DNA of 40,907 nt from Spirochaetaceae bacterium (lineage in GTDB: Bacteria; Spirochaetota; Spirochaetia; PWKH01). Of the stretch, positions 1 to 11,402 are shown one piece after another. Under the pieces are notes generated by a model that did no database searches, had not been told where the DNA came from, and saw nothing but the letters and a program-made list of their open reading frames with translations. A program made the position numbers and the translations under genes. Each line of letters starts with the position of its first letter. Within the stretch, counting starts at the first letter, position 1. The stretch is from assembly GCA_003557605.1 (NCBI GenBank), contig PWNW01000380.1, forward strand, positions 1 to 40,907. Direction: 5' to 3'.

Positions 1-357
1 GACATCAGCAGCCTGCGCGGAACTGTGATAACAAAGATCATCATTCCCGATATTGATCTTCCGGTCCTGCAGAAACGGTTTTCCCGTTCTTCGCAAGGAA
101 AGGCTGCTCTCACTGCTGCGGTGTCACTGGGACATGAGCTGAAGGTGTTTGCATCTGCATACCGTACCGGACTGGTGCGGCTGCACAAGGTCGAAGAGGC
201 CGCAGCAGATCATGGGAATGAACAGCAGATTATACGGGCTGTTCAAGCGTGTTTTTTCCCCGAGGACGACATTTCCGGGACCTCATCCTACAAGCAGTAC
301 CTTGCAGGAACAGCAGTTTCGATGTTTCTTCAGGAACTGAGGCGAAATGGAGGATAA
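1..357 (+). CDS. FAD-binding subunit of a xanthine-dehydrogenase-family enzyme (YgfM-like), C-terminal fragment; 5' end lies outside the window
   Basis: Frame 1 is open from base 1; the tracker starts the ORF at an internal GTG at 25. The C-terminal stretch EDDISGTSSYKQYLAGTAVSMFLQEL resembles the C-terminal domain of CO-dehydrogenase/XDH flavoprotein subunits. The TAA stop at 355-357 sits in the RBS region of the following Mo-hydroxylase gene. Confidence 0.6.
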   Translation, partial: DISSLRGTVITKIIIPDIDLPVLQKRFSRSSQGKAALTAAVSLGHELKVFASAYRTGLVRLHKVEEAAADHGNEQQIIRAVQACFFPEDDISGTSSYKQYLAGTAVSMFLQELRRNGG

Positions 358-361
358 GCAC

Positions 362-1321
362 ATGTCAGTACATCTTACGATAAACGGAATACCAAAAACT
401 GTTCACGGTGATCTGCATGAAAACCTGCAGAAGGTGCTGAAGCGTGAAGGGTACAGGACCGTGCGCAGCAGCGATGACGGTGACGGGTTTGCGGGCAGCG
501 ACACAGTTTTAGTTGACGGAACCCCGGCATTTGCTTCACTGATGGTGCTCGGGCAGGCTGCAGGACGGGAGATCACTACGGCGGAGTCCCTCATGAAGGG
601 GCGAAGACTTTCTGTCATACAGCAGGCCCTGGTTGATTCCGGGGTGGTGCAGTCGGGATATAATATACCCGCCGCCGCGCTGGTGCTGGAGGAGCTCTTC
701 TCCCGTACCCAGTCCCCGACCCGTGAAGAGGCTGCTGATGCCCTTTCCGGGATATTTATTCGTGATGCGGGATATGTGCAGTTTTTTCATGCGGTGGAGC
801 TTGCTGCACAGCGGCTGAAGGACCCCTCCTATGTGACAGAAACAGCCCCGGAATTCCGGGATGATCTTCGCCATGTGGGGAAAGTTCGGGAAAAAGTTGA
901 TGCCCGGAAGCTTGCGGCGGGAATGAAGGCCTACGTGGAGGATTTTGTTGATCCCGATGCCTGCTTCATGCGGATGCTCAGAAGCCCCCATGCCCATGCA
1001 TATATTGCCTCCATTGACGTCTCCCAGGCTGAAGCAATGCCTGGAGTTCTTGCGGTGATTACCCATGAGAACTGTCCTGACGTGTATTACGGCCAGGCTG
1101 GGCAGGGATTTCCTGAACCTTCCCCCTATGACCGGAGAATGTTCAACCGAAAGGTGCGTCATGCGGGTGACCGGGTTGCTGCAGTGGTTGCTGAAACTGA
1201 TGAGATTGCCCTGGAGGCACTGAAGAAGATTTCTGTGAAGTATGACGTGCTTAAACCGGTGATGACCATTGAAGCTGCCAAGGCGCCGGATGCCCCGATC
1301 ATTCACAACAGCGTGGTGTAA
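362..1321 (+). CDS. xdhD: XdhD-type molybdenum hydroxylase, N-terminal segment (cysteine-less 2Fe-2S-like domains plus a/b-hammerhead); ends at an in-frame TAA
   Basis: ATG 362 lies 7 nt after GGAGGA (350-355). MSVHLTINGIP...SSDDGDGFAGSDTVLVDG...VVQSGYNIPAAAL...LSGIFIRDAGY follows the layout of XDH/aldehyde-oxidoreductase Fe-S domains. MLRSPHAHAYIASIDVSQAEAMPGVLAVITHEN is the typical hammerhead domain. TAA 1319-1321 is in frame with ORF 1388..3235. Confidence 0.75.
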   Translation: MSVHLTINGIPKTVHGDLHENLQKVLKREGYRTVRSSDDGDGFAGSDTVLVDGTPAFASLMVLGQAAGREITTAESLMKGRRLSVIQQALVDSGVVQSGYNIPAAALVLEELFSRTQSPTREEAADALSGIFIRDAGYVQFFHAVELAAQRLKDPSYVTETAPEFRDDLRHVGKVREKVDARKLAAGMKAYVEDFVDPDACFMRMLRSPHAHAYIASIDVSQAEAMPGVLAVITHENCPDVYYGQAGQGFPEPSPYDRRMFNRKVRHAGDRVAAVVAETDEIALEALKKISVKYDVLKPVMTIEAAKAPDAPIIHNSVV

Positions 1322-1387
1322 TATGCTGCCGGTGCTCCTGAAGACCTTGATGCCTATAACAAAACTGCTGATCCCCGGGACGGAAAA

Positions 1388-3235
1388 GTGGTGTACCAGT
1401 TTCCCATCGGTGCTGATCCCCATGCGAATATTGCTGCTTCGGTGAGCGGCGGCATCGGAGATATTGAACTTGGCTTTTCCCAGGCTGACAAGGTGATTGA
1501 ACGTACCTACCGATCGAGCCAGGTGCAGTGCACTCCTCTTGAGACCCATGTGGCATATACAAAGATGGAGGGAGACCGTCTGGTTATTCACGCATCAACC
1601 CAGGTGCCGTGGCACCTGAGGAGGATCCTTGCAGCGGTGCTGGGGATCAATGAAAACAAGGTGCGTGTAATTAAGGAGCGTGTCGGAGGCGGGTACGGGT
1701 CCAAGCAGGATATTCTGCTTGAGGATGTGTGCGCCTACGGAACCTGGATCACCGGTCGTCCGGTTTATTTCCGCTACACCAGGGAGGAGGAGTTCATTGC
1801 CAACAGCACCCGTCATGTGATGGACATCACGGTGAAGCTCGGAGCGGATGCAGAGGGAAAGATTACGGCCATGTACATGAACGTAGAGGCCAGCACCGGT
1901 CCCTACGGCAATCACTGCCTCACCGTACCGATGAACGCTTGTTCTAAATCACTTCCCCTGATCATCTGCGATCATGTGAAGTTTGACGTAACCACCTATT
2001 ACGGGAATATCCCGCCAACTGGCGCATACCAGGGGTACGGCGCTCCCAAGGGTTCCTTCGCCTTGATGACCGCCATGGCGGAACTGGCTGAAGAGCTTGG
2101 CATCGACTATCTGGAGCTGATTGAAAAGAACCGGGTGAGGGAGGGCACCATGCTGGAGATACTTAAGTGTCTCGGAGAGGGACGCGAGGGATCTGCGGCA
2201 CCTGTTGAAAGCTGCGGCCTTGATGAAGCATTGCGTCGGGGCCTTGAACTGATGAACTGGGACGAGAAGCCCGTAAGCGACGATGAAGACATCCGCATTG
2301 GGCGGGGTTTTGCCATTATCCAGCAGGGGTCAGGGCTGCCGGGGCTGGACCATTCCTGCGCATATATTCGGATGCTTGCCGACGGGACCTTTATGCTCCA
2401 TTCCGGCGGGGCGGACCTGGGAACAGGGCTTGATACCGTATCGGTGAAGTTTGCCGCAGAACAGCTGTGCGTCGACATGGACCGGATATCGATTATTTCA
2501 GGTGATACCGACACCACACCTTTTGATACCGGTGCATATGCATCAAGCGGCACCTATTTTTCCGGCAGCGCCTCCATGGAGGCCGCCAGGGACTTAAAAA
2601 CAAAGATCCTGCAGACTGCGGCTAAGATCCTCAAGGAGGATACTGGCGGCCTTCAGGTTCAGTACCCTGGGGTGGTCCGGGGTGAGGGCGGAGAGGTCTC
2701 CTTTCTTGATATCGCCAGGGCTGCCCAGTCGGGGGAGGGTGACGGTGAGCTGATGGGGTATGCATCATTTACTACCGAGAACTTTTCGTTCCCCTACGGG
2801 GCCCATTTCTGTCAGGTTGCTGTTCATATGAAGACCGGAGAGATTGAAGTTCAGAAGTATTATGCGCTTCAGGACTGCGGCACTCCGGTGAATCCCGATC
2901 TGGCCCTTGGTCAGATATACGGAGGTGTGCTGAAGACCATCGGCCACAGCCTCTATGAGCAGATGCAGTTTGATTCCCGCGGAGTGTGCGTAAATCCTGT
3001 CCTCAAGGATTACGGAGTTCCGATGATCGGTGACCTGCCGAAGGATTTTCAGGCCCATCTGATATACACCGAAGATCCCTACGGCCCCTACGGCGCCAAG
3101 TCAATTTCTGAAGTCAGCTGCAACGGTGCTTCACCGGCCCTGGCTTCAGCGATTCATGATGCTGCGGGAGTCTGGATCAGAGAGTGGCCCTTTACTCCGG
3201 AGAAGATTCTGCGGGGTTTGGGAAAGATTACCTGA
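1388..3235 (+). CDS. xdhD: XdhD-type molybdenum hydroxylase, molybdopterin-binding segment; same frame as 362..1321, so the pair may be one gene with an internal stop (possible pseudogene)
   Basis: Motifs present: ERVGGGYGSKQD, YQGYGAPKGSFA, SGDTDTTPFDTGAYASSGTYFSG, DCGTPVNPDLALGQIYGGVLKTIGHSLYE, and GAKSISE (catalytic Glu region). The 22 codons 1322-1387 upstream are open in the same frame. Confidence 0.75.
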   Translation: MVYQFPIGADPHANIAASVSGGIGDIELGFSQADKVIERTYRSSQVQCTPLETHVAYTKMEGDRLVIHASTQVPWHLRRILAAVLGINENKVRVIKERVGGGYGSKQDILLEDVCAYGTWITGRPVYFRYTREEEFIANSTRHVMDITVKLGADAEGKITAMYMNVEASTGPYGNHCLTVPMNACSKSLPLIICDHVKFDVTTYYGNIPPTGAYQGYGAPKGSFALMTAMAELAEELGIDYLELIEKNRVREGTMLEILKCLGEGREGSAAPVESCGLDEALRRGLELMNWDEKPVSDDEDIRIGRGFAIIQQGSGLPGLDHSCAYIRMLADGTFMLHSGGADLGTGLDTVSVKFAAEQLCVDMDRISIISGDTDTTPFDTGAYASSGTYFSGSASMEAARDLKTKILQTAAKILKEDTGGLQVQYPGVVRGEGGEVSFLDIARAAQSGEGDGELMGYASFTTENFSFPYGAHFCQVAVHMKTGEIEVQKYYALQDCGTPVNPDLALGQIYGGVLKTIGHSLYEQMQFDSRGVCVNPVLKDYGVPMIGDLPKDFQAHLIYTEDPYGPYGAKSISEVSCNGASPALASAIHDAAGVWIREWPFTPEKILRGLGKIT

Positions 3236-3279: not shown

Positions 3280-4476
3280 ATGAATACAAAACAGGTTACA
3301 GACATGATAAGTCTGCTGGAATCGCTTGATACCGGGCAGATGTACCTCGGCGATTTTTTCCATACGTGGAAAAAACTTGATGATGAAATTACTGCGGTCT
3401 TTCAGACTGCAGAAATCCTTCGGGCGCTGCGGGAGATGAATATTTCCACCAGACTCTTTGACAGCGGACTGGGAATTTCCATTTTTCGTGACAACTCTAC
3501 ACGGACCCGGTTCAGTTATGCCAGTGCATGCAATATGCTAGGCCTGGAAGTTCAGGACCTTGATGAAAAGACCAGTCAAATTGCCCATGGCGAGACCGTC
3601 AGGGAAACGGCCAATATGATATCTTTCATGGCCGACGTAATCGGCATCAGGGATGATATGTATATCGGGAAGGGACATCGGTACATGCAGGAAGTTGCTG
3701 ATTCTGTGCAGGAAGGATTCGATGACGGCGTCCTGGAACAGAGGCCGTCGGTGGTAAACCTGCAGTGCGATGTTGACCATCCTACCCAGTCCATGGCAGA
3801 TATGCTTCATGTGATCAACTACTTCGGGGGAATTGAGAACCTGAAGGGAAAAAAAATTGCCATGACCTGGGCGTATTCACCGTCCTACGGAAAGCCGCTG
3901 TCGGTGCCTCAGGGAATCATAGGGCTGTTTACCCGATTTGGTATGGACGTGGTGCTCGCCCATCCTGAAGGATACAATGTGATGCAGGATGTTGAACAGA
4001 CAGCGTTGAAGCAGGCAGAGGCAAGCGGCGGCAGGTATCAGCGGGTTTCTTCCATGGAGGAGGCCTTTACGAATGCTGATATCGTGTATCCAAAAAGCTG
4101 GGCTCCCTTTGCAGTTATGGAAGAGCGCACATCCCTTGTTGAAGAGGGTAAATGGGATGACTTGAAAGCTTTGGAGCAGCGTTGTCTTACCGAAAATGCG
4201 AAATACAAACACTGGGAATGCACTGAAGACCTGATGAAGCAGACCAAGGATGGAAAAGCGCTGTATATGCACTGCCTTCCCGCAGATATCTCAGGGGTCA
4301 GCTGCACTGAGGGCGAGGTTGCTGCTTCAGTGTTTGAGCGGTACCGGGTCCCCTTGTACAAGGAGGCAAGCTACAAGCCCTACATTATTGCTTCCATGAT
4401 TCTGCTCAGCAGGTTCGAAAACCCCGCAGAAAAGCTGTCAATGCTTCTTGAGAATGCACAGCTAAGGGTACGGTAA
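3280..4476 (+). CDS. ygeW: YgeW-type (knotted) carbamoyltransferase
   Basis: AAGGAG RBS precedes the ATG. The product is 398 aa. Motifs FRDNSTRTRFSYASA, IAHGETVRETANMISF, NLQCDVDHPTQSMADM, KIAMTWAYSPSYGKPLSVPQGIIGL and YMHCLPADISGVSC closely track E. coli YgeW as I recall it. Confidence 0.9.
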   Translation: MNTKQVTDMISLLESLDTGQMYLGDFFHTWKKLDDEITAVFQTAEILRALREMNISTRLFDSGLGISIFRDNSTRTRFSYASACNMLGLEVQDLDEKTSQIAHGETVRETANMISFMADVIGIRDDMYIGKGHRYMQEVADSVQEGFDDGVLEQRPSVVNLQCDVDHPTQSMADMLHVINYFGGIENLKGKKIAMTWAYSPSYGKPLSVPQGIIGLFTRFGMDVVLAHPEGYNVMQDVEQTALKQAEASGGRYQRVSSMEEAFTNADIVYPKSWAPFAVMEERTSLVEEGKWDDLKALEQRCLTENAKYKHWECTEDLMKQTKDGKALYMHCLPADISGVSCTEGEVAASVFERYRVPLYKEASYKPYIIASMILLSRFENPAEKLSMLLENAQLRVR

Positions 4477-5025: not shown

Positions 5026-5064
5026 TACATAATCCTTAAACTCTTGTAGGAATACTATAAAGTG

Positions 5065-8000
5065 ATGTATTTTGGTTTGTCAACAATCAGCCAGCTTATT
5101 CCAGCTTCAGCCAGTATATTATATATCTGTTTTGCGGTGTTCGGGTTTTTTCAGTATAACAAGAAAGACTATTTCTGGTCCTTTCAGCTCTATGTAGTGC
5201 TTCTTGCGGTATGGAGCTTCTGTTCCTTTATGATGCGTTCGGGAATTGACATCATGACCCCGCTGTTCTGGAACCGCATCATGCTCATCGGCATGCTCAG
5301 CACCCCCTTTGCTCTGGTGCATTCCATCGTGGACACCATAGGAATTCGCAGCTTACTTATTCGGAGAATTGCACGGACTTCGTATGTACTGATTATTCCG
5401 CTGATGTACTTAAACTTTACCGGCAGGGTGGTCCTCAGTGCTGTCTTTGAAGATGGAATGTTCATCTACCAGCTTGGAAGCGGTTCTTTTTCAGCCTATC
5501 TCACAAGCTATCTCTATCTGCTTCTTATGATTGTACTTATGTTTAAAGAGCTGAGACGTCGTGAATACACCAGGAGAACTAAGGCTCTGTTTCGGATGTA
5601 TATGCTCGGACTTGGAATCATGCTGGGAGGTATACTTCTCAATCTTGATGAGGAGATAGGAAAATACCCCTTTGATATCCTGGCATCGATGATAAACGCT
5701 ATGATCCTGTTCTACGGTGTGTACCGGTATCGGTTAGTTTCCTATACGAAAATAGGTTTTAAAATTCTCTCCATAGCTCTGCTGCTGGTAGTTACATCCC
5801 TGGTCTTTTTTATTGTGTTGCTGCTGGCAAGTCCGATGGTTCCATTTGTGACAAATGAAAACAAGATTATCCTCTCCCTTTTAATGGGGTCTGTTACGGT
5901 GTTAATTGTCTATCCCATACGATATGCAGCAGCCATGCTGATAGATCTGGTCATTATTCCCAGACGTCACCCCTACCAGCAGAAAATCAGGGAATTCAGC
6001 CAGAAGCTTAATACTATCATTGACCTTGATACCCTAGGCAGCCAGGTGATACAAAGCCTTACATCGGGCATACATGTTGACTGGGTTGTCTGTTTGGTCA
6101 GGCCCTATCGTGGCAGCGCATCTGATAACCAGTTCATACTGTTGAGCACCTACGGGTATGACGGTCCGGTGAAGGTAAATGATACCGTTGAAATCACCGT
6201 AGGTGAGCAAACAACTGTCCAGATCGAAGGGATGAAAAAATATTCGACCTCAAGACTGCTTGTGTCCCGTGATACCTACGGCGGATATCTCTTCCACAGG
6301 GATTTTCCTGAAGCAAACATACTTATCCCCCTAATATTCAAAGGGGAAGTAAACGGATATATTGCCATTGGGGCTCCATGGGAAAGCAAAATCTATTCCC
6401 AGTATGAACAGGAGGCGCTTGAAATCCTTGCGGGTCAGTGCTCCCTTTCGGTGAACAATGCAATCTCTTTTGAACGAATTAAAGCACAGGGGAATGAACT
6501 GATTATCAGCAATACGAAACTTGAATCAATCTTCAACGGCATTGGAACACCCCTTGCTCTTACAGATATTGATTTTTCCATTATTGAAGTGAATAATGCC
6601 GCAGTAACCTTCATCGGGAGAAGAAGAGAAGACATTATCGGTGAGAAATGCTATAAGCTGTTTTTCAGCTGCTCCAAGGCCTGCGGGTTCTGCCGGGCAC
6701 CTGAGTCTCTGCGGATTGGACATAGAGCTGAAGGAGAAGCTGTTGTTGAAGGCAGGACCTATTCTCTTCAGTTTCATCCGGTGAAAATACTTCATAATTC
6801 AAGGCAGGTGTTTCTGGAAATCATCCAGGATGTTTCTGAAGAAAAGAAAATGCAGGAAGAGCTGATGGTTTCTGCTAAGATGGCGGAGATAGGTTCTCTT
6901 GCTGCTGGAATAACCCATGACCTCAACAATCCGTTATATGGAATAACCGGGACTGCTGAACTGATGATGACGAAGCTGGAAAAGGACTCTCCTCACCTGG
7001 AATATCTGCAGGACATTCTCCAGTATTCACAAAGTGCAGTTGATGTAGTCCGGGAAATTTCCCTGTATGCACGGGATGAGCAGCGGGATGCTGACAGAGA
7101 TTTGATCGAGGTGATTGATGCGCTTGAATTCTCACTGAAGCTTGCAGCCAGGGGAATGGATTTTTCTGAAATAGAGATTGTCCGGAATTATATCGACTCT
7201 CCGTCAGTAAGGATCAACTCAGGGGAACTTCAGCAGGTATACCTGAACATTATTATGAACGCTCTTCAGGCGATGGGGGGAAAAGGTGTGCTCGCCCTTA
7301 CGGTCCAGGAATCCTACGGAGTTGTATACATCACCATCAATGATACTGGTCCAGGAATACCCAAGGAACACCTGAATCAGGTGTTTACGCCCTTTTTTAC
7401 CACAAAGAACCCGGGAGAGGGTACTGGGCTCGGACTTTCAAACTGCTTCAGAATCGTCAATAAGCATTTTGGACGGATCAGTGTAGAAAGCGAGGAGGGG
7501 AAGGGTGCATCATTTACCATTTTCTTTCCCTCCCAGGAGACAAGCAGCGAACAAATCCGCTTTGTGCTTGCAGAAAAGCAGCACCATATCAACGATGTGT
7601 TCTTTATCCAGCGGAAAGTGCTTATTGGGGAAAAGGGATATATTGAGGAGACTATTCACAGACATGTGGATGATAAAGCTGTGCATCTGCTTGCCTACAA
7701 GGGAGTCGAACCGGTTGGAACTGTTTCCCTGGTCATGACGAAGGATGTCTCGCCCCTGCCGGTACAGACCTATTTTGATGCCGAGAAATATTTTGAGGAC
7801 AAGGAGCATGCAGGTGAGATCATTCGTCTGGCGGTGGTGCCGGAAATGCGAAATACCCTGGTTTCTCTGGGACTGGTCTCCCTGATATTTCTCTATGGAC
7901 GCTCCCAGGGAATGCGGGAAGTGGTAATCGACTGCTTTTCCAATGATGTGAAAAATATAGAAATGTATAAAAAATTCGGATTTGAGATCATTGGTGAATA

Positions 8001-8211
8001 TACCTCCCCGTCATCAGTCACGGTGATGATCCAGCGTTACGGCACACCCCATGAGCGGGATGCAGAAAAGCGGTCACGGTTTCTGGCTCCTATGTTTAGA
8101 AGGCTCTACACCATGTTTGACTTCGGGGAAAAACACCAGTCGGTGATTGAAGAAATGAGAAAAATCATTCCGGAAATCGGTAGAGAATCAGAGAACGGGA
8201 AAGCTGAATAG
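5065..8211 (+). CDS. Multi-TM sensor histidine kinase (7TM-like N-terminus, GAF-like, Cys-rich PAS, HisKA, HATPase_c) fused to a C-terminal GNAT-superfamily acyltransferase-like domain
   Basis: The first ~290 aa are strongly hydrophobic. The PAS-like segment carries CYKLFFSCSKACGFC. Kinase motifs: H-box EIGSLAAGITHDLNNPL, N-box LNIIMNALQAM, G1 NDTGPGIP, F-box FTPFFTTK, G2 GTGLGLS. A further ~165 aa follows (VFFIQRKVLIGEKGY...VHLLAY...GTVSLV...GEIIRLAVVPEMRN...MYKKFGFEIIGEY). The start is ambiguous between GTG 5062 and ATG 5065. Confidence 0.85.
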   Translation: MYFGLSTISQLIPASASILYICFAVFGFFQYNKKDYFWSFQLYVVLLAVWSFCSFMMRSGIDIMTPLFWNRIMLIGMLSTPFALVHSIVDTIGIRSLLIRRIARTSYVLIIPLMYLNFTGRVVLSAVFEDGMFIYQLGSGSFSAYLTSYLYLLLMIVLMFKELRRREYTRRTKALFRMYMLGLGIMLGGILLNLDEEIGKYPFDILASMINAMILFYGVYRYRLVSYTKIGFKILSIALLLVVTSLVFFIVLLLASPMVPFVTNENKIILSLLMGSVTVLIVYPIRYAAAMLIDLVIIPRRHPYQQKIREFSQKLNTIIDLDTLGSQVIQSLTSGIHVDWVVCLVRPYRGSASDNQFILLSTYGYDGPVKVNDTVEITVGEQTTVQIEGMKKYSTSRLLVSRDTYGGYLFHRDFPEANILIPLIFKGEVNGYIAIGAPWESKIYSQYEQEALEILAGQCSLSVNNAISFERIKAQGNELIISNTKLESIFNGIGTPLALTDIDFSIIEVNNAAVTFIGRRREDIIGEKCYKLFFSCSKACGFCRAPESLRIGHRAEGEAVVEGRTYSLQFHPVKILHNSRQVFLEIIQDVSEEKKMQEELMVSAKMAEIGSLAAGITHDLNNPLYGITGTAELMMTKLEKDSPHLEYLQDILQYSQSAVDVVREISLYARDEQRDADRDLIEVIDALEFSLKLAARGMDFSEIEIVRNYIDSPSVRINSGELQQVYLNIIMNALQAMGGKGVLALTVQESYGVVYITINDTGPGIPKEHLNQVFTPFFTTKNPGEGTGLGLSNCFRIVNKHFGRISVESEEGKGASFTIFFPSQETSSEQIRFVLAEKQHHINDVFFIQRKVLIGEKGYIEETIHRHVDDKAVHLLAYKGVEPVGTVSLVMTKDVSPLPVQTYFDAEKYFEDKEHAGEIIRLAVVPEMRNTLVSLGLVSLIFLYGRSQGMREVVIDCFSNDVKNIEMYKKFGFEIIGEYTSPSSVTVMIQRYGTPHERDAEKRSRFLAPMFRRLYTMFDFGEKHQSVIEEMRKIIPEIGRESENGKAE

Positions 8212-8254: not shown

Positions 8255-9538
8255 TCAGCCGATAATCAGTTTCAGCAGAAAAAGAATACCGACGATAATT
8301 GTCATCAGGTTGATTTCCTTGGACCTGAGTGTCAGAAGTTTCAGGAAAATCCATGAAAGCATACCGATCATGATGCCGTCAGCAATGCTGTAGGCAAGGG
8401 GCATAATGATCAGGGTCAGAAATGCCGGGATAGCTTCGGTGTAGTCGTTGTAGTTTATGTCCACTACCGGTGTCATCATAAACAGTCCCACAAGAATCAG
8501 AGCTGGTGCGGTAGCCGCTCCAGGGATGGTCAGAAACAGCGGTGAGAGAAACAGCGCAATGAGAAACAGCACAGCGGTGGTAAAACTGGTGAGACCGGTT
8601 CTTCCGCCCTCAGCAACACCTGCGGAACTTTCCACATAGGTGGTCACCGTACTGGTTCCAAGCATGGCTCCGACGGTTGTTCCGATTGCATCGGACATCA
8701 GTGCCATCTTGCAGTGTGGAATTTCGCCCTTTTCGTTCAGGATTCCAGCTTTCGTGGAAACGCCGATGAGGGTGCCTACGGTGTCAAACATGTCGACAAA
8801 CAGCAGGGTGAACAGCACTATTACCATATCGAAGGTAAAGACCTGTGAAAAGTCAAACTGAAAGAAGATTGGAGCAAGAGACGGGGGTGCCCAGCTGCCT
8901 CCTGCCCAGGAGGTGATACCGAAGGGTACTCCAATAATGGTGGTGAGGATGATGCCGATGAGCAGTGCTCCACGGACCTTGAAGGCAAGGAGGATTCCGG
9001 TAATGATCAGACCGATCATGGCAAGCAGGGGTGCTCCTGAAGTGAGGTCGCCAAGTTCAACCAGGGTCGGACCTCCCACAATCACTCCGGCATTCTGGAA
9101 TCCAATAAACGCAATAAAAAGACCGATACCGACTGAAATAGCTTTTTTTACATCAGAGGGTATGCTGTTAACAATCGCTTCCCGGATGTTGAATAAAGTC
9201 AGGAGAATAAAAATTATTCCTTCCAGGAATACGGCGGTCAGTGCAAACTGACAGGGATATCCCATGCCGATGACTACGGTATACGCAAAAAATGCGTTGA
9301 GTCCCATGCCCGGTGCAAGCGCAAAGGGCAGATTTGTAGTAAATGCCATTACCAGGGTGGCAATTGCAGAAGCAAGCGCCGTCGCGGTAAAGAGAGCCCC
9401 GAAATCCATTCCTGTGTCGCTGAGAATCAGCGGGTTTACAATAAGGATGTAAGCCATGGTCAGGAATGTGGTAAGCCCTGCAAGAACCTCAATTTTTACG
9501 GTTGTTTTGTGCTCCTGCAGTTTAAACAACTTTTCCAT
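8255..9538 (-). CDS. NCS2/AzgA-family purine (adenine/guanine/hypoxanthine) permease
   Basis: The 427-aa polytopic product starts MEKLFKLQEHKTTVKIEVLAGLTTFLTMAYILIVNPLILS, the typical N-terminus of PbuG/GhxP/AdeP-type permeases. It is divergent from adenine deaminase. Confidence 0.88.
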   Translation of the reverse strand: MEKLFKLQEHKTTVKIEVLAGLTTFLTMAYILIVNPLILSDTGMDFGALFTATALASAIATLVMAFTTNLPFALAPGMGLNAFFAYTVVIGMGYPCQFALTAVFLEGIIFILLTLFNIREAIVNSIPSDVKKAISVGIGLFIAFIGFQNAGVIVGGPTLVELGDLTSGAPLLAMIGLIITGILLAFKVRGALLIGIILTTIIGVPFGITSWAGGSWAPPSLAPIFFQFDFSQVFTFDMVIVLFTLLFVDMFDTVGTLIGVSTKAGILNEKGEIPHCKMALMSDAIGTTVGAMLGTSTVTTYVESSAGVAEGGRTGLTSFTTAVLFLIALFLSPLFLTIPGAATAPALILVGLFMMTPVVDINYNDYTEAIPAFLTLIIMPLAYSIADGIMIGMLSWIFLKLLTLRSKEINLMTIIVGILFLLKLIIG

Positions 9539-9677: not shown

Positions 9678-11402
9678 ATGGACAGAGAAACCCTCCGCAG
9701 AATCATCGCGACAGCATCAGGAAACGAGGAGCCGGATCTGGTGCTGAAAAATTGCCGCATCGCCGATGTATTTACCAAAGAGATTATCTCCGGAGACATT
9801 GCAGTCTCCTGCGGATACATCGCAGGAATCGGGTCCTATGAAGCTTCCTGCGAGCATGATTTGAACAGCAGATATGTACTTCCGGGGTTTATTGATGCCC
9901 ATGTGCATATTGAATCTTCCCTGGCATCTCCAGCTCAGTTTGCTGCAGCGGTTATACCCAGGGGAACGGTATCGGTCATTGCAGATCCCCATGAAATCTG
10001 CAATGTTGCCGGAACCGAAGGCCTCTTCTATATGATCAGGGCTGCGTCTAGAACACCCCTGCGAACTCATTTCATGCTTCCCTCCTGTGTGCCCGCAACG
10101 GAGTTTGAAACCTCCGGTGCCGTGATGGGGGTTCAGGAACTTACTTCCCTGATTACCAACCAGAATATTCTCGGACTTGGCGAGATGATGGCATTTCCCC
10201 AGGCAGTCGCCGGTGACCCTGAGGTGCTCGACAAACTGCTGCTTGCATATCATGCACATAAGCCTGTGGACGGCCATGCTCCAGGGCTGAAAGGAAAAGA
10301 ACTCAGCAGCTATGCTGCAGCTGGAATCATGACCGATCATGAGTGTACAACTCCGGAAGAGCTGAAAGAGCGGATTTCACGGGGAATGTACGTGATGCTG
10401 AGGGAGGGATCTGCATCCAAGGACCTCCGACACCTTCTTAAGGGGGTCAATGATCCGATATCCCGGTGGTGCATGTTCTGCACCGATGACCGTCAGCTTG
10501 ATGACATATTCAGCGAAGGCCATATAGACAATCACCTGAAGATTGCCCGCAGCTGCGGTATCGACCCGCTTACTGCTGTTCAGATGGCCTCAGTCAATGC
10601 TGCGGTGTGCTACCAGCTGAGGCATCAGGGAGCCGCTGCACCGGGGTATTATGCAGACCTCACTGCGGTTGACGATCTGGACAGCTTTACTGTCAGGAAG
10701 GTATACATCGGAGGCAGGCTGCGGGCCAGTGACGGTGTATTGACTGAAGAGATACCTGCTTCATCGAGCACCGGTGTTTCAGACACCATGCATGTTGATG
10801 TGATTAATGAAGAACAGCTGGCCCTGCATATTTCCGGGACGGATGCCCATGTCATACAGATGACGCCCCGTTCCCTGCTCACTAAACTTGTGAATCGCCG
10901 GCTTCCCCGTGACAGCAGGGGCAGGTTTCTGTTTCACCCTGGATCTGGAGTATGCAAGATCATTGCCCTGGAACGCCATACCAGAAGCGGTCAGATGGGA
11001 ATCGGGCTCCTTGAAAACTACGGAATAACCGGAGGGGCAGCAGCACTGTCTATTTCCCACGATTCCCATAACATCATTGCCGCAGGAGATTCCGACAGGG
11101 ATATCGTCACTGCCGTAAATGCTCTGATCAGGCAGGGCGGCGGGATAGTTCTTGCTTCCCAGTCAGAGGTTATTGAGAGGCTTCCTCTTCCCATTGGAGG
11201 ATTGATGTCTGACCTTGGGGCTTCTGAAATACGCAGCAGGGTAAAGCGCATTGAGGATACCGCCCGTAAACGACTGAAGATTCATCCTGATATTGATCCG
11301 GTCATGAGCTTGAGCTTTCTAGCCCTGCCGGTGATACCCGAGGTGAGAATCACGGACAAGGGACTGTTTGACGTTTCCAGATTTACCCATATCCCCGTAT
11401 GA
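9678..11402 (+). CDS. ade: Adenine deaminase
   Basis: The 574-aa product has the amidohydrolase metal motif PGFIDAHVHIESS, then IADPHEI and HECTTPEE, with the length and layout typical of Ade. Confidence 0.9.
   Translation: MDRETLRRIIATASGNEEPDLVLKNCRIADVFTKEIISGDIAVSCGYIAGIGSYEASCEHDLNSRYVLPGFIDAHVHIESSLASPAQFAAAVIPRGTVSVIADPHEICNVAGTEGLFYMIRAASRTPLRTHFMLPSCVPATEFETSGAVMGVQELTSLITNQNILGLGEMMAFPQAVAGDPEVLDKLLLAYHAHKPVDGHAPGLKGKELSSYAAAGIMTDHECTTPEELKERISRGMYVMLREGSASKDLRHLLKGVNDPISRWCMFCTDDRQLDDIFSEGHIDNHLKIARSCGIDPLTAVQMASVNAAVCYQLRHQGAAAPGYYADLTAVDDLDSFTVRKVYIGGRLRASDGVLTEEIPASSSTGVSDTMHVDVINEEQLALHISGTDAHVIQMTPRSLLTKLVNRRLPRDSRGRFLFHPGSGVCKIIALERHTRSGQMGIGLLENYGITGGAAALSISHDSHNIIAAGDSDRDIVTAVNALIRQGGGIVLASQSEVIERLPLPIGGLMSDLGASEIRSRVKRIEDTARKRLKIHPDIDPVMSLSFLALPVIPEVRITDKGLFDVSRFTHIPV

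Follow-up and report, generated by a model that had tools for sequence, protein, structure and literature searches.

A private G>T substitution behind an in-frame TAA in a spirochaetal xdhD-type gene, probably a consensus error or minority allele

Results

The xdhD locus and its in-frame stop

The window analysed here spans nucleotides (nt) 1 to 40,907 of contig PWNW01000380.1 (assembly GCA_003557605.1, forward strand), which is contig C1 of the draft metagenome-assembled genome (MAG) G000 of a Spirochaetaceae bacterium, and positions are given in its coordinates. The MAG comprises 384 contigs (N50 8.7 kb) and is 82% complete with 4.6% contamination. Close to the left end of the window lies an xdhD-type molybdenum (Mo) hydroxylase gene interrupted by a single TAA, between the 3' part of a ygfM-like gene and an intact ygeW (Table 1).

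Two open reading frames (ORFs), 347..1321 and 1388..3235, occupy a common frame (both starts are 2 mod 3), and translation of 362..3235 gave 958 codons with a lone internal stop as residue 320. The bases at 1307-1327 read AAC AGC GTG GTG TAA TAT GCT, with the TAA at 1319-1321, and the stop is followed by 22 residues (YAAGAPEDLDAYNKTADPRDGK) and then by VVYQFPIG. A preliminary description of this DNA, made without database searches, had reported the shared frame, the sole TAA, the 958-codon span and the 22 stop-free codons running into the downstream ORF, and translation confirmed each of them. The continuity of the reading frame across the TAA is far beyond chance.

When the stop was handled as X, as for the seven other interrupted genes described below, the NCBIfam model TIGR03313 (XdhD-type Mo/iron-sulphur (Fe-S)-binding subunit) aligned in a single stretch, from residues 6-955 to model positions 2-951 of 951, with a score of 1376.5 bits against a cut-off of 1101.9. 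Pfam models gave four domains in the order Fer2_2 (residues 73-146), Ald_Xan_dh_C (187-297), MoCoBD_1 (356-590) and MoCoBD_2 (628-893), and the TAA falls in the linker separating the hammerhead domain from MoCoBD_1. The identification as an XdhD-type Mo hydroxylase made in the preliminary description was therefore upheld end to end, and the product is predicted to be an ordinary single-polypeptide XdhD, the molybdenum cofactor (MoCo) subunit of an XdhD-YgfM urate reductase. The four domains stand in order, yet the polypeptide of this record breaks off after the second.

The nearest strain and the ancestral codon

An exact look-up placed the 319-amino acid (aa) and 615-aa pieces in one cluster with P0243, an unbroken protein of 957 aa that was recovered from six sequencing runs, on six contigs in all. 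Across the gene these contigs do not differ from one another, and their genes are arranged as in the window (ygfM-like, xdhD, ygeW, a small ORF, histidine kinase and permease). In P0243, which shows 98% aa identity to the product of the window gene, residue 320 is Glu; the two genes are 95.3% identical at the nt level with no gaps, codon 320 being GAA in the former and TAA in the latter. Since the sister strain, intact as it is, has GAA at this codon, the lesion is a first-position G>T at window position 1319 (Glu GAA to TAA) and not an altered Tyr codon; the origin from Tyr (TAT/TAC) envisaged in the preliminary description has to be replaced by one from the Glu codon of close relatives. Exact look-ups of the window YgeW and of the 615-aa piece gave no additional contigs, and degenerate DNA pattern scans around the stop had no match in genome contigs or metagenome contigs. 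The lesion was confined to one record, the assemblies from the six runs having the sense codon, and these comparisons demonstrate both the substitution and its privacy.

The window gene and that of P0243 differ by 104 synonymous and 23 non-synonymous codon changes (stop included), and the aa differences are mainly conservative. Relative to the sister strain, dN/dS (Nei-Gojobori) was 0.06 before the stop (codons 1-319) and 0.066 after it (codons 321-957), at a dS of 0.16-0.19, demonstrating an intact gene under selection. There is no decay on either side of the stop, and neutral evolution since the stop arose would account for at most a few percent of the divergence between the two strains. The low dN/dS on both sides indicates that the stop is either very young or absent from the organism.

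The first of these possibilities corresponds to a genuine, very recent nonsense mutation in a population carrying an xdhD null allele, in which translation would end after residue 319 and leave a 35-kDa fragment without MoCo-binding domains, with loss of urate reduction by the enzyme. We consider this unlikely, if still credible. The TAA stands in the deposited sequence, purifying selection on both halves would fit a lesion whose age is below a few percent of the sister-strain divergence, and other public genomes also contain XdhD fragments that are truncated and look frameshifted; against it, the remaining pathway genes are intact, and further in-frame stops of this MAG, described below, would have to be equally recent.

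Orthologues and the possibility of a two-piece enzyme

Fourteen orthologues (57-76% identity) were recovered from 40 related Spirochaetia genomes, and none of them had a stop inside the match. Their alignment, an analysis already proposed in the preliminary description, placed Glu opposite the TAA in 7 of the 14 and Thr, Arg, Ile or Ala in the others, and the stretch encoded by 1322-1387 proved variable. Database searches agreed with this picture: among the best 120 of 4422 proteins with E < 1e-100, 119 were single polypeptides of 929-1024 aa, and the sole exception was the window's own 615-aa piece. Named homologues were from Spirochaetia.

One orthologue (L018, on contig C67 of genome G017) carries two Gly/Ala/Ser-rich insertions within a few residues of the stop position, on its downstream side, which together add about 31 residues. 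Its N-terminal third is also the more divergent part (50% against 66% identity).

A functional two-piece enzyme, formed non-covalently as in nicotinate dehydrogenase from the 319-aa piece and a C-terminal one translated from a new start at GTG1388, would be in keeping with the position of the stop in a variable linker between hammerhead and MoCoBD_1 that tolerates some 31 extra residues in one orthologue, with the dN/dS of about 0.06 in both halves and with the existence of natural Mo-subunit splits (PDB 3hrd, chains A and B). However, no orthologue is split at residue 320, the known natural split lies at residues ~635-647, and equal selection on the two halves reflects the time before the change. 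The start signal is also poor. GTG1388 is the first in-frame start past the stop, 22 codons downstream, and its upstream 18 nt pair with the anti-Shine-Dalgarno (anti-SD) sequence at -6.5 kcal/mol, the 12th percentile of the internal NTG codons of the gene, against -9.1 to -9.3 kcal/mol (about -9.2) at the real starts of xdhD, ygeW and ade. Residues 336-342, encoded just before GTG1388, are the same in the intact P0243, so there is no sign of a newly evolved start signal or ribosome-binding site (RBS). We therefore regard a two-piece enzyme as very improbable.

A natural split Mo hydroxylase, as would be expected if orthologues were routinely encoded in two ORFs broken at this point with a real RBS, was rejected: 0 of the 14 orthologues are split there and GTG1388 pairs weakly with the anti-SD. 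The search with the 319-aa piece likewise gave no close N-terminal-only relatives, the short matches, none above 64% identity, being partials at contig ends or fragments whose tails look out of frame, and a conserved natural split was discarded on this ground too.

The fragments with such tails (P0010, P0019, P0027, P0041, P0050, P0053, P0093 and P0114) come from other bacteria, one of them named Edwardsiella tarda, where they lie on chromosomes or long contigs; one belongs to a 12-member cluster and lies on a 3.9-Mb contig. They suggest that xdhD may have been broken, or mis-assembled, repeatedly in other bacteria.

Recoding and readthrough

Among 1290 ORFs of at least 300 codons, 371 end in TAA, 350 in TAG and 569 in TGA, in agreement with the earlier statement that all three serve as terminators. 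No tRNA with anticodon TTA (UUA) was found by ARAGORN in the whole 82%-complete assembly. Reassignment of TAA was ruled out by these two results. Selenocysteine, dismissed in the preliminary description as well, was ruled out because the codon is TAA, not TGA, and relatives have Glu or a variable residue at the site.

UAA readthrough or recoding leading to full-length XdhD would account for the frame going on undisturbed past the TAA. The TAA of this gene is followed by T, and in E. coli UAAU terminates translation strongly. In addition to this context and to the missing UUA-anticodon tRNA, the 371 long ORFs that end in TAA speak against readthrough, and the site, being Glu or variable in relatives, is not a conserved recoding site. 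The other in-frame stops of the MAG include TAG and TGA and have no common context. Readthrough is likewise a remote explanation. That the TAA is real and fixed and that an active enzyme is nevertheless made, through low-level readthrough or through assembly of the 35-kDa and GTG1388 pieces, has in our judgement only a very small chance of being true; if it were, this would be a newborn Mo hydroxylase split at a linker without known splits.

A selenocysteine tRNA (anticodon TCA) is present on one contig of the MAG (ARAGORN coordinates 1869-1959). Because of this tRNA the organism appears to use selenocysteine, which would fit the selenium-linked context of the XdhD family and is unrelated to the TAA.

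Other in-frame stops in the MAG

All contigs of the MAG were scanned for adjacent same-frame ORFs with high codon-usage scores on either side, the frame being the best of six, and with no start codon within eight codons past the stop. The scan flagged 18 junctions, of which eight, including that of xdhD, were stops inside conserved motifs. The ten remaining junctions were dismissed as ordinary gene starts or non-coding frames; one of these ten, on contig C131, was discarded after translation, which showed a non-coding or antisense frame.

Each of the seven further stops (Table 1) is spanned by one family-model alignment, giving a total of at least eight. Relatives have a sense residue at all seven sites, and where the DNA was read the sense codon is one base off. 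For two of these stops the relatives with sense codons are as close as 99.3% (over 4.3 kb) and 99% (in a 303-nt window). The eight stops include TAA, TAG and TGA, with no common motif in the flanking bases, and no clear enrichment near contig ends was apparent by eye. A frame-switch scan of the MAG gave five candidates, none convincing, and no indels in coding DNA were found in about 25 kb aligned to the sister strain. Similar lesions are thus demonstrated genome-wide, and the presence of at least seven more such stops in conserved genes indicates a feature of the record and not of xdhD.

With the codon usage of this genome, 3.7% of random coding substitutions yield a stop. At this nonsense fraction, at least eight stops would imply some 200 or more unselected substitutions in the MAG, about 1 per 10 kb.

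By substitution class the eight stops comprise five G:C>T:A, two C>T and one C>G changes. A guanine oxidation (8-oxoguanine) signature was considered and is unsupported, since five of eight G:C>T:A changes compare with 42% by chance. Over 7 kb aligned to a 99.3-99.7% identical contig, G:C>T:A changes equalled the reverse class (7 and 7), and most differences in that comparison were synonymous strain variation.

The first 121 nt of the window (1-121) match the end of contig C71 apart from 5 mismatches, and exact overlaps of the same length with other contigs are found at 26 contig ends. The pattern suggests an assembly graph with k=121 that broke where strains vary, the MAG being in that case a mosaic of co-occurring strains.

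Genomic neighbourhood and the N-terminal domain

The neighbours of xdhD fit the reductive urate pathway, with a YgfM-like FAD (flavin adenine dinucleotide)-binding subunit gene adjacent and ygeW downstream, and the pathway genes flanking xdhD are intact. In the sister strain (loci L020-L025) a complete 265-aa FAD_binding_5 gene occupies the ygfM-like position, and the upstream genes include those of an SsnA-like amidohydrolase and an M20 peptidase. The XdhD-YgfM enzyme of E. coli uses NADH (reduced nicotinamide adenine dinucleotide) to reduce urate to 2,8-dioxopurine, the first step of the reductive urate pathway (PMC12507026). The gene cluster is reported from Spirochaetota too, and it is only for the E. 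coli enzyme that NADH-dependent urate reduction is known (PMC12507026).

A sensor histidine kinase gene is located between the urate-pathway genes and the purine permease gene, and is kept in the sister strain.

The '2Fe-2S' region of XdhD (residues 1-156, window 362-830) lacks the usual ligand cysteines (SSDDGDGFAGSD, VQSGYNIPAA, IFIRDAGY). The enterobacterial homologues P0010, P0019 and P0114 read in the same Cys-less way, and CxxC-type motifs are retained in P0014, P0038 and P0053. Since the ligand cysteines are absent there, the XdhD family probably includes members that bind no Fe-S cluster in the N-terminal domain.

Table 1. Features of the left part of the window and in-frame stops on other contigs of the MAG (locations on other contigs are given as contig:position in + strand coordinates)
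Feature	Location	Strand	Stop codon	Remarks
ygfM-like FAD-binding subunit gene, 3' part	1..357	+		truncated by contig start; TIGR03312 model positions 142-250
xdhD-type Mo hydroxylase gene	362..3235	+		957 sense codons and terminator, one interruption; TIGR03313, four Pfam domains
N-terminal piece, 319 aa	362..1318	+		ferredoxin-like domain without Cys ligands and a/b hammerhead; separate 319-aa protein-collection entry
In-frame stop, residue 320	1319..1321	+	TAA	sister strain GAA (Glu)
22 in-frame sense codons without start codon	1322..1387	+		variable linker preceding conserved YQFP motif
C-terminal ORF, 615 aa from GTG1388	1388..3235	+		carries both MoCo-binding domains
ygeW, knotted carbamoyltransferase gene	3280..4476	+		intact downstream pathway gene; TIGR03316 736 bits, cut-off 500
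Sensor histidine kinase	5062-8211	+		N-terminal seven-transmembrane (7TM), PAS, HisKA/HATPase, C-terminal GNAT/FeeM-like acyltransferase domain
Xanthine/uracil permease gene	8255-9538			model match
Adenine deaminase gene	9678-11402			model match
pgi	C147:28818		TAG	NF010695 711 bits; relatives CAG
Pyruvate:ferredoxin oxidoreductase (PFOR)	C161:903		TAA	TIGR02176 928 bits; relatives Tyr TAC or Phe TTC
topB (topoisomerase III)	C268:15389		TAG	NF005829 732 bits; relatives Gln CAG
purH	C279:1126		TGA	NF002049 595 bits; relatives TCA
argC	C232:5222		TGA	TIGR01850 369 bits; relatives Cys TGC
N-acylglucosamine 2-epimerase	C215:1210		TAG	NF052547 295 bits; relatives GAG, contig 99.3% identical over 4.3 kb
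GH3-like protein	C48:6673		TAA	NF052613 106 bits; relatives Glu, protein level only

Discussion

The xdhD TAA is probably not present in the dominant organism and would represent a consensus error or a minority allele. In one record only, a G>T at 1319 converts the Glu codon, GAA in the nearest strain, to TAA, probably through a consensus or base-call error or through a rare allele taken up by the short-read metagenome assembler, and the organism itself would make the normal 957-aa enzyme. We infer a technical rather than a biological cause because fresh nulls of pgi, purH, argC, PFOR and xdhD together are unlikely in a viable free-living cell, and because substitution-only private stops in intact, selected genes resemble consensus errors or rare alleles. 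The same evidence tells against an xdhD null allele, which would need equally recent nonsense changes in pgi, purH, argC, PFOR and topB of the same genome, implausible for such a cell. Gene decay in nature normally brings indels, and lesions of that type were not found in the frameshift scan. Strain mixing in the assembly, evident from the mismatched overlap between C71 and the window, speaks for a technical cause as well.

Several points weigh against a technical cause. It is judged from assembled sequences, and the stop scan covered this one MAG. The classes of the eight stops match uniform random substitution (42%, 19% and 9% expected for G:C>T:A, C>T and C>G, respectively), and no specific artefact signature was demonstrated. 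Eight internal stops are not extreme for a bacterial genome, so that the argument depends on which genes are affected.

The preliminary description had offered four explanations without ranking them. An error now comes first and a very recent nonsense mutation second, and the two-piece enzyme and readthrough become very improbable, with no split orthologue, no convincing RBS at GTG1388, no suppressor tRNA found and a TAA-T context. The feature is an ordinary private substitution, most probably an error of the record, and as such has little biological import: in annotation the two ORFs should be joined into a single xdhD gene in which one base is doubtful, and labels such as pseudogene, split enzyme or recoding site are unwarranted. 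It also serves as a warning on this record. Other single-base oddities of the MAG deserve equal caution, because unselected substitutions, by estimate 200 or more, may be scattered throughout it.

Comparison with known systems

The window gene resembles E. coli xdhD (PMC12507026; TIGR03313) in the 957-aa length class of its product and in the same four-domain order, and its surroundings agree as well, with a ygfM-like gene adjoining, ygeW downstream and, in the sister strain, SsnA-like amidohydrolase and M20 peptidase genes upstream. It differs in that the frame of this record has one TAA at residue 320, and the activity of its product is predicted from sequence.

Nicotinate dehydrogenase of Eubacterium barkeri (PDB 3hrd, NdhL and NdhM) is likewise a Mo hydroxylase, one in which the coding of the MoCo-binding polypeptide is divided between two pieces, and its chains A and B were the only split Mo subunit among the solved structures searched. 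That split lies between MoCoBD_1 and MoCoBD_2 and is a fixed arrangement with its own start, whereas the xdhD break is at residue 320, private and without a proper start.

The third comparison is with the internal-stop 'pseudogenes' that arise from consensus or base-call errors in draft MAGs. Although no artefact-specific mutational signature was seen here, the xdhD stop shares with them a private single-base change in an intact, selected gene, and the record as a whole resembles them in that several essential genes of a single assembly carry such stops while frameshifts are absent.

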